Below, piece by piece: positions 1 through 22,042 of a DNA stretch of 25,120 nucleotides (position 1 is the first letter of the stretch; every line of letters starts with the position of its first letter). The notes under the pieces are model-generated. The model did not search any database, was not told where the DNA came from, and saw nothing but the letters and a program-made list of their open reading frames with translations. The translations under genes and the position numbers were made by a program. The DNA is from a virus (lineage: Duplodnaviria > Caudoviricetes): positions 1-25,120 of IMG/VR virus record IMGVR_UViG_3300044300_000899; one strand, 5' to 3'.

Positions 1-42
1 AACTAATAAAGATATAGACAACGTTACAGGCCGCTTAAAAAA

Positions 43-537
43 ATGAAAAACTCTCTTTTCTTCCTCGCTGCTTTCCTCGTATCAACTCCTCTTAGGGCTG
101 ATATACATCACACTATTTCGGCGTCGGCGAGTCTCACTACTACAGCGGCGGCAACTCAGGCAACCCGCGTCGGTTCAAGTTTTTCGATTTCGGGTACTGG
201 GGTTGATACTGCTATAGGAGATAACGCCGGGCAATTATCAGCGGGTACGATCACATCAGGAATCTATAGCCCCGGCACTGTAGTCGCGACGCAGAATAGT
301 TCAAATGGGGAGGCGTATTCCTTCAGTTCTACATATTTGCAGGGCGATGTAGTCCCAACTTCGGCATTAACAACAGGAGCATCACCTAATTTCAGTGACG
401 TAATTTCTACCGCCGCAGGTTCAGCAGGTGACGCCGCAGCAACCTTGACTTCTGCGCAGGCTGTAGGTTTAACAGCCGGAGGGCCGGGTAGTCAGGTCGT
501 GGGCCAAATAATTTCAGAAATAAAAATTACCGACTAA
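43..537 (+). CDS. Secreted Ser/Thr/Ala/Gly-rich protein of unknown function (cassette protein 1)
   Basis: 164-aa ORF. Sec-type signal peptide (MKNSLFFLAAFLVSTPLRA/D). The mature part is rich in small residues with beta-strand patterning at both ends and no Cys. Resembles, from memory, a conserved cyanophage hypothetical family. Confidence 0.8.
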   Translation: MKNSLFFLAAFLVSTPLRADIHHTISASASLTTTAAATQATRVGSSFSISGTGVDTAIGDNAGQLSAGTITSGIYSPGTVVATQNSSNGEAYSFSSTYLQGDVVPTSALTTGASPNFSDVISTAAGSAGDAAATLTSAQAVGLTAGGPGSQVVGQIISEIKITD

Positions 538-632
538 TGCACGTTCCAATTCTTGCCTGTTCTATAGCTGTCTTAATTTTTTGTTTAATTAACTTTTTAA
601 TGTGGAAACATTACATGGATATTCATAAATAA
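537..632 (+). CDS. Unannotated 31-aa single-pass membrane peptide (MHVPILACSIAVLIFCLINFLMWKHYMDIHK)
   Basis: Read by hand. The ATG overlaps the upstream stop (TAATG, 535-539) and its stop overlaps the next ATG (TAATG, 630-634). It contains a hydrophobic stretch of about 20 residues. Confidence 0.7.
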   Translation: MHVPILACSIAVLIFCLINFLMWKHYMDIHK

Positions 633-1060
633 TGAAACGAGTTTTTTTGTTGTTATTGATATTTAATGAGCCAATAGCAAAGGCAGAGAAAATTGTTCCT
701 AATTTTCAACAAGGAATATTAACCCAACACAGCGAGACTAAAAGCGTTATTTTGCGCGACATGAAAATATTTGATATGAGGTCAGGATACCAATTCACAG
801 TTGGCGGTGCTAACGTTAAACCTTCTACAGATAATATTGCACCAACAGGATTTACAGAACAAACAGGAACAATAGGGGGAACAGCTACAACGTATGTATT
901 ACCTGATTTATCAAATAAACCTGCTTATTCAATCGTTAATGAAGGCGCGGCGTTTTCTTACTATGAAACACTAGAAACCCCCGGAATCCAGACATATACA
1001 CATCTAGTAGAAGAACACACTATTGAAAATATTACTGACAGTACAAGTACTTTTCAATGA
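632..1060 (+). CDS. Secreted protein of unknown function (cassette protein 2)
   Basis: 142 aa. Signal peptide MKRVFLLLLIFNEPIAKA, then IVPNFQQG. Thr-rich with beta-strand-like termini, ending STSTFQ. Confidence 0.8.
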   Translation: MKRVFLLLLIFNEPIAKAEKIVPNFQQGILTQHSETKSVILRDMKIFDMRSGYQFTVGGANVKPSTDNIAPTGFTEQTGTIGGTATTYVLPDLSNKPAYSIVNEGAAFSYYETLETPGIQTYTHLVEEHTIENITDSTSTFQ

Positions 1061-1080
1061 GAAAAAATGTTATTTAGTTA

Positions 1081-1764
1081 ATGAAAAAATATTTATATTT
1101 AATCGCTCTATTTATCCCTGTTAATTCTTCTTTTGCAAACACGATTAATACAACTAGTCAATCCTCCGGGTCCGTCGTTAATCAGGCCGTACAAGTGGTG
1201 CCAGCAAGACAATTTCAGTACGCTATTTCTAACACAAGTTGTCAGGGCGCGACATTAAATATTAGCCCATTTCTTTCTTCTACCTATAGTTTTGGTTCAC
1301 CTTATGAACCTTATTATGATCGGCCAATCTATTCAACAAAAGATATACTTGGTGACTTTGACGACGCTGGAAATCCGACAGGTGACGGTGATGTGGATGA
1401 GCCAAATTTAATTTTAAGAACAGAACGAGTACGAACAGGTATGCAAGCCGGGAACACTTCTTTAAATGGTGGGATTACAGCAACCTTCTCTATACCTATC
1501 GGGAACCAATCAGCATTAAGAAGTTGTAGGAAAGCCATGAAAAAGCAAGTCGAATTATATGAAGCTTCCCTAGCATCTAAAAGATTAAATTATGAAATGA
1601 CGCGGTTGGCTACATGCGGCAAGCACTTGAAAGAGGGATTAGTTTTTATTGGTGAAATGGCTAAAATCTGCGCCGATGTTCGTTTAGTAACGCCGCCTAA
1701 TGTTAAACATACACACGCTATTTCTTTAACGGGGGAAGATCCCGTTTCTGACGATAAAGATTAG
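1081..1764 (+). CDS. Secreted or outer-membrane candidate protein with 4 Cys (cassette protein 3)
   Basis: 227 aa. Signal peptide MKKYLYLIALFIPVNSSFA. Amphipathic strands (GATLNISPF; NGGITATFSIPIG) are followed by a helical region. An acidic loop DFDDAGNPTGDGDVDE is present. Confidence 0.8.
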   Translation: MKKYLYLIALFIPVNSSFANTINTTSQSSGSVVNQAVQVVPARQFQYAISNTSCQGATLNISPFLSSTYSFGSPYEPYYDRPIYSTKDILGDFDDAGNPTGDGDVDEPNLILRTERVRTGMQAGNTSLNGGITATFSIPIGNQSALRSCRKAMKKQVELYEASLASKRLNYEMTRLATCGKHLKEGLVFIGEMAKICADVRLVTPPNVKHTHAISLTGEDPVSDDKD

Positions 1765-2332
1765 TTTTAATTTCTGATCGGGTTAATTTCTTTTCTTTTT
1801 TACCTAATAACTTTTTAACTTTCCCAACTAATTGTTTGAATAATGGTTTTAATGCTTTCGTTAAAATTGGCGTTAATGTTGCCGCACTTGTCGCGACTAT
1901 TGTTATTCCGAAAGTAGTAGCAGCAACCGACGCACTTGGTAAATATTTATCAGCTATATTTGTTGGCCCCCATATCTCAACACATTTTTTATTAACAACT
2001 TCAAAACCAATGACCTTTTCTTTTGCTTTGGTACTTAAATCTCCTAATCGATAAGCCTGATCTTTTGCAGGACAATCAATTTCTTTTTCCTCTGGTAAGA
2101 CATCCTCGCCGGGTAAATCAGCATCAGGAGGATTAGCAGGATCAGGAGGGTTAGGCGGTTGAGCCTTTTGCACATATTGCATTTTCTTCGGGTTATATTC
2201 GATCGGCGTATAACTAGGAATTAAAAAGTCTATCCCCGGTTTTTGTACGTTTAATTGTCTTGTGATATGGGGTGTATTAATTAAGGTGTTAATCTTTGGT
2301 ATCTGTATTTTTTGAATCTTTTCTATTTCCAT
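1718..2332 (-). CDS. Pro-rich membrane protein of unknown function
   Basis: 204 aa. Pro-rich linker (PPNPPDPANPPD), a Cys pair, a hydrophobic segment (VAATTFGITIVATSAATLTPIL), then a Lys-rich amphipathic helix. Confidence 0.75.
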   Translation of the reverse strand: MEIEKIQKIQIPKINTLINTPHITRQLNVQKPGIDFLIPSYTPIEYNPKKMQYVQKAQPPNPPDPANPPDADLPGEDVLPEEKEIDCPAKDQAYRLGDLSTKAKEKVIGFEVVNKKCVEIWGPTNIADKYLPSASVAATTFGITIVATSAATLTPILTKALKPLFKQLVGKVKKLLGKKEKKLTRSEIKTNLYRQKRDLPPLKK

Positions 2333-5464: not shown

Positions 5465-5671
5465 TTAAAAAGGAAGGGCGGGGCCGGTTGATGTAGGAAG
5501 CTTTATGTCAGGAACAGGTATTAGCTTTGTAATTTGATTTGTCAAATAAGCTTTTGCTTTAGCTTGGTTGGTTGGGTTCTTAGCGTAGAAATAAAGACCC
5601 GTACCGCCTGCCAGCACTCCCACTATAAAGACTGAATTAGCGATAACAAGGACATTAATAACTTTTTTCAT
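5465..5671 (-). CDS. Small single-pass membrane protein of unknown function
   Basis: 68 aa with an N-terminal hydrophobic helix (VINVLVIANSVFIVGVLAGGTGLYFY) and a Pro-rich tail. Confidence 0.7.
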   Translation of the reverse strand: MKKVINVLVIANSVFIVGVLAGGTGLYFYAKNPTNQAKAKAYLTNQITKLIPVPDIKLPTSTGPALPF

Positions 5672-18558: not shown

Positions 18559-20535
18559 TTAAGTAGTTACGTCTAAGCAGGCTGCGAATGCAGAAGCTTG
18601 TCTTACAGCAACGTCGATTGTTGTAATAGCTCTAACACTTGTTAATGCCTTACTAAAGTCATCGGAGTCTGTACCGATTTCGATTTCTAGGCCATTGCCC
18701 CAAACGCCTAGAGCAACTTGTGAGAAGTCACCAAAGATAACAGCAGAACAAACACCTGAGCTAGAACCTTTTGTTAGGTTGCTTGGTACGTTTGTTGATA
18801 CTCCTATTGGGTAGCCGTTGATTACTCCGGGTGTTCCTGAACGACCAATGCCGCTTGGGTCAACATTCCAAAGGAAAGCACCATCACCAGCAGCAGAACC
18901 ACCGGCTCTAAGTTTCTTCAATTCAGAAAGAACTTTAGGGTTGGTTGCGTATGCCATAGAAGCACCGCCAGCATTATCAACTAAAACTTCCTCTTCTAGG
19001 TTGATGAGTGTTTCAAGTGTGATAGCACCCCCATTCGTGGCAATTCCGACTGATCCGATGCCAGCGGTTCCTGTTATGCCGGTCGGTTGGCCGGATGAGC
19101 CAGAACCAGCAATTACAGCGGCATCAATTCCAACGTTAATAGTGTCGGTTAGGTCACGTCTCACAAGCTCTTCAATTCCGGGTGTTGCTTGTAAAAGTGT
19201 TTGACGAGAGAACTTACTTAAGGCTGCATAGTTCTTAGGAGCCATTGTTACCTGATCAAAAGTAGATTCAGATTGTGTAATAGCTGTTGTCTCAGAACTC
19301 AACCAATAACCTGTAGAAGTTCCTGAACGTCTAGGAATTGCAACATCACCAACAAGGCCGGGAAGTGTTCTGATTCCTAATGAACCTGTAATTGTGTTAG
19401 CTCTTAAAGCCTCAATGAAATCATCAGCTAAAAGGTCAGTCGCTACTAGATTTCCTCCAGTTGTTGCGCCGGAAGTAACGTATGTTGCCCTTTTTGTTAA
19501 AGCAGAATAAGGAATTAAGAAACTACGATCAGCAGATCTTTTAACACCTGAACGCTCAACCTCTTGTGAAAGCTCACGAACTAAACCAGCTTCACGAGAT
19601 GACCAATCACCTGTAAGAACAGCTTTAATACCTGCGGCGATGCTATAGCGCTCTTCTGTCTTAGCGTCCATCTCTACAGGAGAGACAGTTTCAACAGACT
19701 TATTAGCCAATTTGTCGCAAACGACCTTACGAACATAATTGCCGTCAACTTTAGGATCATCACAGAATTTTTCTGTTGCCTCCTCTCCTAGCTCATGCTT
19801 TCTACATAAAGCAGTAATTTCTCTAATACGGTTACGCTCTTCGTTGGCTGCCTTTTTGGAAGCCTCAGAACGCACCACTTCTAAATCGGGTGTGTTGGAC
19901 ATCTGAGTTTGTAAATCAGGTTTACTATTTTGTGGTGCGCCAGAAGACGCAACGGCGCTTTCACGCTGTTCCTGCATATTACTTGATTCTTGCTTCGCAG
20001 GCATATTAGTTTCTAGTTTTTCTTCTTTTGACCGTCCTATGCCTGAACCTAAATAGTCTGCTGGCACCGTTACAATGCTAATTTCCGCGGGCTGGAAGCC
20101 AACTACTCGGTAGTAGTTCTTGTTAGGTTCATCTTTTCTTTCTTCTTCCTGCGTCTTGGTCACGCTATATCCCACGCTTACGTTTTTTAATATCCCATCA
20201 TTAATTAGGTTTAATATTTCTTCTCCGCGTTCATGTTTACCTAATCGAACTGTGACATAACCTCTCTTATCTTTTATCCACGACTTTTCTACTACTCCTA
20301 AAATATCTTCAGAATTGTGATTGTATAACAAAGGAGCCGACGCCCTTAACCTACTTTGATCAACAGATTCTTCTGTAAAGTCCAACACTTCATATCCTAG
20401 ATAGCCCCTATTTACTGGCTCTTCTGATCCATAGGGAAAAGTAAGAGTCCTTTTATCTTTATCAATTTGAAAATCAACAGGTTCTGATCGATGTTGAATC
20501 TGCGCCTCTAAATCACGTTGTTTCTTCTTTGTCAT
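18559..20535 (-). CDS. Fused prohead protease (HK97/S78 type), scaffold and major capsid protein (HK97 fold)
   Basis: Protease motifs LLYNHN (His), VSVGY (Ser) and EISIVTVPAD, a low-complexity linker, a helical EERNRIREI scaffold segment, then capsid motifs GGNLVATDL...FIEALR, G..NGYP...TN.VP and IFGDFS. Likely start is the ATG at 20535 (MTKKKQRDL). Confidence 0.92.
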   Translation of the reverse strand: MTKKKQRDLEAQIQHRSEPVDFQIDKDKRTLTFPYGSEEPVNRGYLGYEVLDFTEESVDQSRLRASAPLLYNHNSEDILGVVEKSWIKDKRGYVTVRLGKHERGEEILNLINDGILKNVSVGYSVTKTQEEERKDEPNKNYYRVVGFQPAEISIVTVPADYLGSGIGRSKEEKLETNMPAKQESSNMQEQRESAVASSGAPQNSKPDLQTQMSNTPDLEVVRSEASKKAANEERNRIREITALCRKHELGEEATEKFCDDPKVDGNYVRKVVCDKLANKSVETVSPVEMDAKTEERYSIAAGIKAVLTGDWSSREAGLVRELSQEVERSGVKRSADRSFLIPYSALTKRATYVTSGATTGGNLVATDLLADDFIEALRANTITGSLGIRTLPGLVGDVAIPRRSGTSTGYWLSSETTAITQSESTFDQVTMAPKNYAALSKFSRQTLLQATPGIEELVRRDLTDTINVGIDAAVIAGSGSSGQPTGITGTAGIGSVGIATNGGAITLETLINLEEEVLVDNAGGASMAYATNPKVLSELKKLRAGGSAAGDGAFLWNVDPSGIGRSGTPGVINGYPIGVSTNVPSNLTKGSSSGVCSAVIFGDFSQVALGVWGNGLEIEIGTDSDDFSKALTSVRAITTIDVAVRQASAFAACLDVTT

Positions 20536-22042
20536 CGGATTGATTACTATTTTCAACCATCTTACTGTCTTTTTGATACGTAGACATATCAGTGTCAAAT
20601 ACTAGCCCTAATTGTTGAGCTGCTTCTACCTCGGCTTTTCTTGCTGGAAGTAGTTCCTCTAAATCTCCACCGTTTTCACTAACGATTTGCGATTGTGTTT
20701 TCAGTCCGGCTTTGATTGCTTCTTTTGCTGCAACGATTTCTTTTTGTGGGTCGATCCAATCCCAACCGCGAGGAATCCAACGCACCTTTCTATATCTCTC
20801 TGGTTCTGTGTCGTATGACGGTAAAACCAAAGCCCCGCTTAAGGTTGCCATTTCTAACCAAGCATCAAAAACCCGACTGTGGAAATTTTCAATCAGATAA
20901 GTTTGAAGTGAACGGTAATGATTGCGATCTTCTAAAAGAGATAAACGGGAAGAAGAATAATTAGTTTTGCTGAAATCTTTAGAAACTGATTCGTAGGAAA
21001 TTCCACACCCTGAAGCAACACTTCTAAGCATTGCACTCATAAATTCAGGGAACTCGCTATTAGGTGAATCAAAGTCTGGAACCGTCACGGATTCGCCAGC
21101 TTGAAGATAGGAAAACTTGCCGGGTTCAAATTGTGAAACTCTTTCATTGTCGTAAACTTCGCCGCCTTGATCTAGTTCACCTTCGGGGCTGGTAATAAAT
21201 CCCATTAACGAACTTGCCGCCCTTGCCCTAATAACTGACGCCTCTTGGAAACCTGCTAAATGATGCAAAGACAAGATAGAAGAACTTAACCACGGTTCCC
21301 CTCTTGACTGGCTGGGCCTATTGCTAACAAAGATGTGACATATTTCACTAGCTGGAACAATCATGTGTTCCCGTTGACCAACAGGAGTACCAAAAGGGGT
21401 ATCTCCGGGGTGTTTCTTTAAGAACGCATATTGAACGGCTCTACCAAATTCATTCTGTTCTATTCCCATTCGCCAAGTGTTCTTTTTCTTAGAACTACGC
21501 CCCGTATATTCACTATCTAATTGATCAGCTTCTAATAATTCCAAAGCAAAAGGAATCTGTGATCTTCCAAAAGGTTTCCTTACAAATCGAACAAATATTT
21601 CACCATCAGTAACCAACGAACGGACAATTACTTTTTCAATATCGGTAAAGCATAAACGCCCTGCTGTATGGCAAGAATCGTACCGTTTCCAATTGCTCCA
21701 AGCTTGCTCAATTTGATTATTAATTTTTGTGTCTAGGCGTTTACCCCGTTGTTGTCTCACTTGCGCCTGTAGTTTTATTCCGTGCGCTCCAATCGTGTTG
21801 CTTTCAATCGCTCTTACTGCCTGACGTGCAAACGGACTATTTCTTACTAAGTCCCTCGACTTATATCGAAGTGGAGCAATGGCACCTTTTAAAGCAGCGT
21901 CAGCCGAAGAATTACTGACAGACCAATTAGAAGTAAGACGGCTAGAAGTTGCAGCATCGTAACCTCGCCTTCTTCTAGGTAACACCGTTGGGTTGGGTGG
22001 TTCTGATGTGAACAATCCTTTCCAAGCATTAACAAGACCCAT
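20513..22042 (-). CDS. Portal protein, lambda family
   Basis: LR..SRDLVRN, DGE.F, L.LLEADQL, GIE..EFGR...Y, RP.Q.RG.PW, NYSSSRL.LLE and W.WIDPQKE motifs. Confidence 0.95.
   Translation of the reverse strand: MGLVNAWKGLFTSEPPNPTVLPRRRRGYDAATSSRLTSNWSVSNSSADAALKGAIAPLRYKSRDLVRNSPFARQAVRAIESNTIGAHGIKLQAQVRQQRGKRLDTKINNQIEQAWSNWKRYDSCHTAGRLCFTDIEKVIVRSLVTDGEIFVRFVRKPFGRSQIPFALELLEADQLDSEYTGRSSKKKNTWRMGIEQNEFGRAVQYAFLKKHPGDTPFGTPVGQREHMIVPASEICHIFVSNRPSQSRGEPWLSSSILSLHHLAGFQEASVIRARAASSLMGFITSPEGELDQGGEVYDNERVSQFEPGKFSYLQAGESVTVPDFDSPNSEFPEFMSAMLRSVASGCGISYESVSKDFSKTNYSSSRLSLLEDRNHYRSLQTYLIENFHSRVFDAWLEMATLSGALVLPSYDTEPERYRKVRWIPRGWDWIDPQKEIVAAKEAIKAGLKTQSQIVSENGGDLEELLPARKAEVEAAQQLGLVFDTDMSTYQKDSKMVENSNQSDDKEETT

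Follow-up and report, generated by a model that had tools for sequence, protein, structure and literature searches.

The viral contig IMGVR_UViG_3300044300_000899 of IMG/VR (25,120 bases, analyzed in full and hereafter called the window) derives from a lambda-like cyanosiphovirus, and its positions 43–2332 encode four proteins, here designated p1–p4, that correspond to gp164–gp167 of phage Syn9. These genes have long been known as separate hypotheticals; what is new here is that they form one real, widespread envelope machine, for whose parts roles can be proposed. The best-fitting reading, which we put forward tentatively, is a phage pathway that secretes and assembles a beta-fiber or coat on the surface of the infected cell. 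The four genes are the core of the module, which extends beyond them to homologs of gp161 and gp162. Its genes in the window, and one intervening peptide, are as follows:

2–46 (+): 3′ end of a gp161 homolog, a protein with two transmembrane (TM) segments truncated by the contig start; its frame matches the C-terminus of gp161 in locus L004
43–537 (+): p1, 164 amino acids (aa), equivalent to Syn9 gp167, 'OMP1', PHROG 564 and T4-GC237; predicted signal peptide and a 145-aa Cys-free, predicted all-beta part; proposed major fiber subunit
537–632 (+): hydrophobic peptide, 31 aa; lineage-specific insertion
632–1060 (+): p2, 142 aa, equivalent to gp166, DUF6322, PHROG 650 and T4-GC236; predicted signal peptide and a beta protein with long N- and C-terminal strands; paralog of p1; proposed adaptor or nucleator
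1081–1764 (+): p3, 227 aa, equivalent to gp165, PHROG 848 and 1755, and T4-GC235; predicted signal peptide, an amphipathic beta-hairpin whose acidic loop is dispensable, a helix of 42 aa and four invariant Cys; proposed oligomeric outer-membrane pore
1718–2332 (−): p4, 204 aa, equivalent to gp164, PHROG 570 and T4-GC234; a linker rich in Pro, a membrane segment toward the C-terminus and a basic tail; proposed inner-membrane anchor
5465–5671 (−): gp162 homolog with an N-terminal TM segment, a helix and a Pro-rich end, mis-annotated in GenBank as 'plasmid stability'; accessory member

The open reading frames (ORFs) of p1–p4 and of the peptide lie where a first-pass annotation of this DNA had placed them. 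The gp161 stop overlaps the ATG of p1 (in L004, gp161 matches DUF6450 with E = 3.7e-7), and p4, with which the minus-strand structural run ends ahead of the inverted block, overlaps the 3′ end of p3; tail-fiber genes separate it from gp162. The first-pass annotation had counted the 31-aa peptide as a coupled membrane component of the module. It is present in one of 62 related loci (L005) and is therefore taken as a recent insertion, not a component. The four genes stand as members, and gp161, gp162 and gp163 had been overlooked. Just 5′ of the real p3 ATG at 1081, a six-codon ORF (1057–1077, +) overlaps the p2 stop and resembles the p3 start; in close relatives p3 begins at the p2 stop, and this ORF looks like a short local duplication.

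Linkage of the four genes is consistent across genomes. We took the 152 loci whose sequence reaches 1.8 kb or more upstream of the p3 end and 1 kb or more beyond it; they were chosen via p1 or p3, on partly repeated contigs, and hence are not independent. In this set, p1 and p2 are each present in all 152 and p4 in 150, resulting in 150/152 loci with all four genes. The canonical order is seen in 179 of 228 fetched loci, most of the others being truncated by contig ends. Searching 50,697 phage records with tblastn gave matches in 347 for p1, 409 for p2, 411 for p3 and 335 for p4, all of them cyanophage or marine. The order p1, p2, p3 and a converging p4 is common to Kyanoviridae, an Autographiviridae record and the siphovirus lineage of the window; the carriers thus comprise T4-like myoviruses, a T7-like podovirus and siphoviruses, as well as three freshwater cyanobacterial contigs from metagenome-assembled genomes (MAGs). 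Relatives of p3 also occur in the 38-kb MED4-184 / P-HS2 / MED4-117, and in P-SSP10 and P-SSP3 (BFVD). The co-occurrence in other genomes and the suggested kinship with genes of T4-like cyanomyoviruses are thereby borne out, the module being common to unrelated cyanophage groups. In the gene tables of Sullivan et al. (2010, PMC3037559), 15 of 16 cyanomyoviruses have entries for T4-GC234, 235 and 237, 12 have one for 236, and the 10 non-cyanophage T4-likes have none of the four; the cyanomyovirus without T4-GC234–237 is S-PM2, in which our own search likewise did not find p3. Those tables enter T4-GC234–237 (and 218, 219 and 414) as separate hypothetical proteins, with no module, envelope location or function given there.

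No characterized family in Pfam, NCBIfam or PHROG claims any of the four proteins, as the first-pass annotation had anticipated. Among the window proteins, the sole module match above cutoff in Pfam and NCBIfam is DUF6322 on p2, PHROG families 564, 650, 848/1755 and 570 are all of unknown function, and the ESM Atlas returned the proteins' own families only. The GenBank labels 'OMP1' and 'plasmid stability' carry no evidence.

The products of p1–p3 are predicted to be exported to the host envelope. Signal peptides were scored with our own heuristic rather than SignalP; p1, p2 and p3 pass, as claimed for these three consecutive plus-strand genes, and none of the 19 other (structural) ORFs of the window does. 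Among homologs, 110/110 p1, 74/87 p2 and 57/107 p3 sequences pass, the last rate probably being depressed by references with shifted starts. By heuristic, a lipobox is absent from all of these homologs (110, 87 and 107, respectively). Together, these signal-peptide-like N-termini point to the host envelope as the destination, as had been suggested for the window.

p1 and p2 are paralogous (hhalign E = 7.6e-6), with DUF6322 matching p2 and 9 of 112 p1 sequences. Both are acidic and all-beta by prediction or pattern, with Gly, Ala, Ser and Thr contributing 58% of p1 and 41% of p2. Their description as Cys-free and Thr-rich holds: neither window protein contains Cys (found in 0/110 p1 and 2/87 p2 homologs), and Thr plus Ser make up fractions of 0.30 and 0.23 of the mature chains. 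p3, encoded beside them, has four invariant Cys; exported substrates such as CsgA that thread through a pore of the outer membrane in an unfolded state avoid disulfides. The p1 monomer model has a mean pLDDT of 59 and is confident for the terminal strands only. The two proteins differ in how they evolve with their neighbors. Across 157 loci, sequence identities of p2 and p3 are tightly correlated (rho 0.86), those of p4 follow both at 0.57, and those of p1, the first of the three genes, at 0.2–0.3. Among 191 pairs of loci that are close in the other three genes, p1 differs by more than 40% in 45, and p2, p3 and p4 in none. A tight p2–p3 pair with a decoupled p1 that is swapped in some lineages is what one would expect of an exchangeable surface subunit on a fixed base, although the support from swapping is modest because the pairs come from few lineages.

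p3 is the candidate pore subunit. Its monomer model (pLDDT 72, pTM 0.33) predicts a long beta-hairpin (residues 33–65 and 92–120), then one helix of 42 residues and a short one; the first 18 residues, which are conserved, are not resolved by the model. Across 111 sequences, one hairpin face is hydrophobic (L40, I42, L46 and L109, G111, I113, A115, F117, I119, I121), and at the hairpin base hydrophobic and polar columns alternate over ~13 residues. Four Cys are invariant in the same 111 sequences and likely form two periplasmic disulfides. The amphipathic strands, helical region and four Cys noticed at first pass are thus retained. The length of the acidic loop between the strands differs among homologs, and cyanobacterial ones lack it, leaving a hairpin of membrane width. 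In marine phages this loop (mature residues ~68–90 of 1138–1764) carries acidic, DxDxDG-like motifs, so that a calcium site on the cell surface is possible; the copies of freshwater hosts are without it. A single amphipathic hairpin of two strands could not be accommodated in a membrane by itself, so p3 likely oligomerizes into an outer-membrane pore of barrel type. Pfam OEP (PF02321) weakly matches the hairpin-helix of 2 of the 111 homologs, both cyanobacterial (E = 0.004 and 0.022), with no such match for the window p3. Sequence-profile searches of the PDB with p3 and p1 gave no match below E 0.1, Foldseek against the PDB with the p3 model gave none at E ≤ 0.001, and a search of BFVD returned mainly the p3 family itself. 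The VIA wide fold search with p3 reached a best Z of 5.1, to generic helices only, for a monomer model of pTM 0.33. These missing fold matches for p1 and p3 do not establish a new fold, and p3 is at most a half-TolC relative or analog.

The remaining parts appear to belong to the inner membrane. p4 contains 11% Pro and, starting at residue 136, a moderately hydrophobic stretch of 19 aa (mean Kyte–Doolittle (KD) value 1.45), after which comes a Lys-rich tail; the claim of a Pro-rich membrane protein converging on p1–p3 therefore stands, including its Pro linker and membrane segment, while the Cys pair noted alongside them is not an invariant feature. In 80 loci with wide flanks, gp161 (two TM segments) and gp162 (one TM segment, N-terminal, followed by a helix, with no match in our family search) are each found in 74, and gp163 in 34. 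These partners favor a different machine, in which a p3 ring in the outer membrane and p2/p1 rings, forming a beta-tube from their polar terminal strands, would be coupled to p4, gp161, gp162 and gp163 as a closed trans-envelope channel supplying nutrients or ions to the late-infected cell. Such a channel would explain the three or four inner-membrane-type partners of 74/80 wide loci better than a fiber does; it would also suit the long, largely polar terminal strands of p2, the TolC-like hairpin-helix of p3 and the placement of the myovirus block among the metabolic genes psbA, hli, pstS and petE. We nevertheless regard it as unlikely: none of the partner genes tested (one member in the case of gp163) contains a transporter, ATPase or binding-protein domain, copies in host-gene context lack gp161 and gp162 in the incomplete MAGs searched, and swapping of p1 alleles is unexpected for the inside of a tube. 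Often found beside gp162 in small phages, and elsewhere in myoviruses, is a gene for a small protein that has a signal peptide and a terminal Phe and is patterned like an outer-membrane barrel of eight strands (52 loci; L001 7631–7993, −); it is absent from the first 8 kb of the window. The convergent overlap of p4 is usual and not required, rare rearrangements placing it upstream, on the same strand or 2 kb away (L032 2–646, L201 4673–5473, L219 3875–4642 and L217 5035–5856).

Promoter motifs indicate that the module is probably expressed late. Of 69 distinct loci in which p1 leads the operon (mostly of myovirus type), 40 have TAAATA 8–70 nt ahead of p1, and 38 of the 40 occurrences are at 30–39 nt, the T4 late-promoter core being ~35 nt upstream; the background is 115 of 6,900 sequence windows, and the motif precedes gp161 in 2 of 98 small-phage loci. 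For three gp167 homologs, Sullivan et al. (2010, PMC3037559) list upstream motifs of T4-like late promoters, at distances of 25, 36 and 76 nt. In small phages, the block gp161-p1-p2-p3 is inverted between tail-fiber genes plus p4/gp162 on one side and genes that we read as holin-like or peptidase-like on the other (95 of 136 gp161-led loci). Late timing, this position next to lysis-like genes and the presence of both inner- and outer-membrane parts could all be accommodated by an accessory to lysis that breaches the outer membrane or the thick cyanobacterial wall in place of spanins. We consider this improbable, in part due to the direction of p1–p3, which are on the opposite strand to the lysis-like genes and face away from them, and in part due to the four to seven proteins involved, where spanins need one or two. 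Furthermore, an essential spanin-like role is weakened because S-PM2, which is lytic, has neither p3 nor T4-GC234–237, because no lipoprotein is encoded and because apparently intact copies occur beside host genes. Separately, a candidate cyanosiphovirus lysis cassette lies on the late strand after the inverted block (L103 2512–3432, −; L119 81–1280, −); it comprises a peptidase-like gene, seen in 62 loci, and two small genes for membrane or helical proteins, seen in 70 and 59.

Two further roles fit less well than fiber, channel or lysis. The inverted siphovirus block inside a late operon resembles a moron, and a periplasmic or outer-membrane complex acting in superinfection exclusion or receptor masking, moron-like in temperate phages, would account for envelope targeting, for the variability of p1 and for host copies, which could be captured defense genes. 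Known exclusion proteins, T4 Imm and Sp among them, are produced early and come from single genes, whereas the myovirus copies carry a late, not an early, promoter motif; early exclusion is thereby weakened, and exclusion in general strikes us as very unlikely. Least probable is that the proteins are minor virion or membrane-associated assembly factors. The late-promoter motif and a position beside tail-fiber genes in small phages would be compatible with this, and the signal peptides, the occurrence of the module in all three tail types and the host-context copies argue against it. The proteomics column of the table in PMC3037559 is also blank for T4-GC218, 219 and 234–237 (with one phage of that 2010 set lacking the genes), in line with the initial claim that the products are not virion proteins.

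Copies outside phages bear on how lethal the module might be. On three freshwater cyanobacterial MAG contigs (L225–L227), p1–p3 directly follow genes read as ndhI/G/E, NAD kinase and a LuxR-type regulator. A p4-like ORF converges on them, as in phages, in two of the three (weak match, E = 1e-4), the third contig ending earlier; gp161 and gp162 were not found in the three incomplete MAGs. A more distant p3 is encoded in G560, a contig of 5.99 Mb. The next gene there codes for a secreted protein rich in Thr, Ser and Asn, which has weak matches to the profiles of p1 (E = 0.004) and p2 (E = 0.014) in a set of three sequences; the 35 relatives of this p3 include proteins named from Nostoc, Fischerella, Merismopedia and Rivularia. 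This two-gene host locus (L250 7081–8119, −) possibly represents a minimal cellular form of the system. p3 is rare in hosts (6/301 genomes at order level and 3/401 at phylum level, several of them phage contigs or seed genomes), and an initial scan of genome contigs with a single protein query found none. Host-context copies fit a non-lethal structure that a host can use.

In the fiber pathway, the products of p1–p4 would be exported to the host envelope, where p3 would oligomerize into an outer-membrane pore. p1 and p2 would cross this pore unfolded and polymerize into a beta-rich fiber or coat on the infected cell, with p1 as the major subunit and p2 as a nucleator or adaptor bound to p3, while p4, together with gp161 and gp162, would anchor or service the pore from the inner membrane. 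Its likeliest purpose would be to alter the surface of the late-infected cell, which might then stick to neighboring hosts, or resist grazers or further phage, until progeny release. We favor this pathway because the products are predicted to be exported, probably late, go unmarked as virion proteins, are missing from the lytic S-PM2 and seem to be tolerated by hosts, because the pore-like p3 is tied to p2, and because the looser, low-complexity, Cys-free p1 comes first. Of the four mechanisms initially suggested for the window, a surface filament with its own export pore is thus preferred and a channel stays open, with the spanin-like and exclusion roles set back as above.

Several observations weigh against secretion of a fiber. 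Two or three additional membrane genes point to a machine that spans the envelope, and curli-type pathways have no inner-membrane anchor; p4 itself lacks a signal peptide and is ambiguous in topology. The OEP match, seen in 2/111 members, is below the gathering cutoff (15 vs 22 bits for the one match printed), and neither profile nor fold searches with p3 retrieved a TolC chain. p1 has no homology or fold match to any fiber subunit (VIA wide best Z 2.8), which shows little either way because its model is of low confidence. The p1 swaps reduce to 3 of 26 independent clusters, compared with 1 of 26 for p4, and low complexity and an edge position could also lower the p1 correlation. The host MAG contigs stop ~1 kb or less after p3, so that an adjoining prophage is possible. 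Finally, we met no report of phage-induced fibers on infected cyanobacteria, having made no search aimed at such reports. A bolder version of the fiber pathway, which we consider possible though less likely than not, is a new kind of complete secretion system in all three cyanophage tail types. In it, a natural half-TolC ring would export a phage-made beta-fiber as a coat of late-infected Prochlorococcus or Synechococcus, tethering these cells to uninfected hosts or shielding them from grazers; freshwater picocyanobacteria would keep the module as an appendage system of their own, its genes possibly being the unassigned ones behind spinae-like structures.

Elsewhere in the window, the minus strand from 2344 to 25005 is a lambda-like structural run (terminase, portal, protease-capsid, tail tube, tape measure, tail tip and fibers, as read from ORF translations), at the end of which the module is located; the tail-fiber assembly protein at 2344–2778 was confirmed by PHROG. 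Judged by translation, the prohead protease and major capsid protein appear to be fused into one 679-aa ORF (18559–20598, −). Among the other loci, a phage contig in a cyanobacterial assembly (G181; L246 9687–14492) carries a p3 close to that of MED4-184 / P-HS2, with three or four unrelated genes between p3 and p4. In L211 (4215–5399, +), p2 and p3 form a single ORF, a sequence error or broken allele that reads as a frameshift into the overlapping p3 frame and was not used. Module matches in bacterial and archaeal records (L214–L224) are largely on cyanophage-like contigs, probably from infected cells or mis-binning; the one read, L218, carries psbA and other myovirus genes. A search for relatives of the p3-like protein of L234 found none.

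In the most abundant ocean cyanophages these genes are close to core, with ~410 GenBank phage records and an estimated 3,500 IMG/VR stretches for p3, and the one-machine view, the part assignments and the cultured carriers (Syn9, P-HS2 / MED4-184) make the proposal testable. A phage-built surface fiber, if real, would matter for host finding by progeny in dilute seawater and for whether infected cells aggregate and sink. If a rival is true instead, the module would provide cyanophage lysis with a step at the outer membrane, or else be a new channel for uptake. We found no description of it, and no function given to its genes, in the full-text literature searched, which covers few subscription papers.

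On the features tested, the module does not belong to the curli, TolC or spanin systems. Spanins (lambda Rz/Rz1, T1 gp11) are late, envelope-spanning phage genes, which the module may resemble in its probable timing and in its lysis-like neighbors in small phages. gp162 and p4 have a TM segment and Pro-rich stretches, and gp162, which matched no family, has the outline of an inner-membrane spanin subunit with an N-terminal TM segment and periplasmic helices. Unlike spanins, the module has no outer-membrane lipoprotein (lipobox in 0/110 p1, 0/87 p2 and 0/107 p3 homologs) and no signal peptide on p4, contains secreted beta proteins and a pore-like subunit, and is absent from S-PM2. Curli are alike in logic, with two paralogous, Sec-exported, Cys-free, polar beta proteins encoded beside a dedicated pore gene, a pore role that is proposed here for p3. 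They differ in that no module protein matches a curlin repeat or the CsgG family in Pfam or NCBIfam, that p3, with two strands per subunit, has no lipobox (0/107 by heuristic) where the curli pore is a lipoprotein, and that the module has extra inner-membrane parts and is phage-encoded. Spinae, the protease-resistant, beta-rich surface appendages of Synechococcus, Cyanobium and Roseobacter, are described in PMC3517982 with an unsettled subunit gene and a reported spinin of 42 kDa; as mature p1 is ~14 kDa, they offer a lead only for the appearance of a p1 fiber. With TolC/OEP (PF02321), the p3 model shares export, an amphipathic beta-hairpin, a conserved Pro and a long helix. It departs from that family in having one hairpin per 208-aa mature chain instead of a duplicated repeat with four TM strands, four invariant Cys, no adaptor or pump among the neighbors tested and a Pfam score below cutoff. 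If p3 is indeed a single-repeat, TolC-like pore, it would bear on the origin of efflux barrels.

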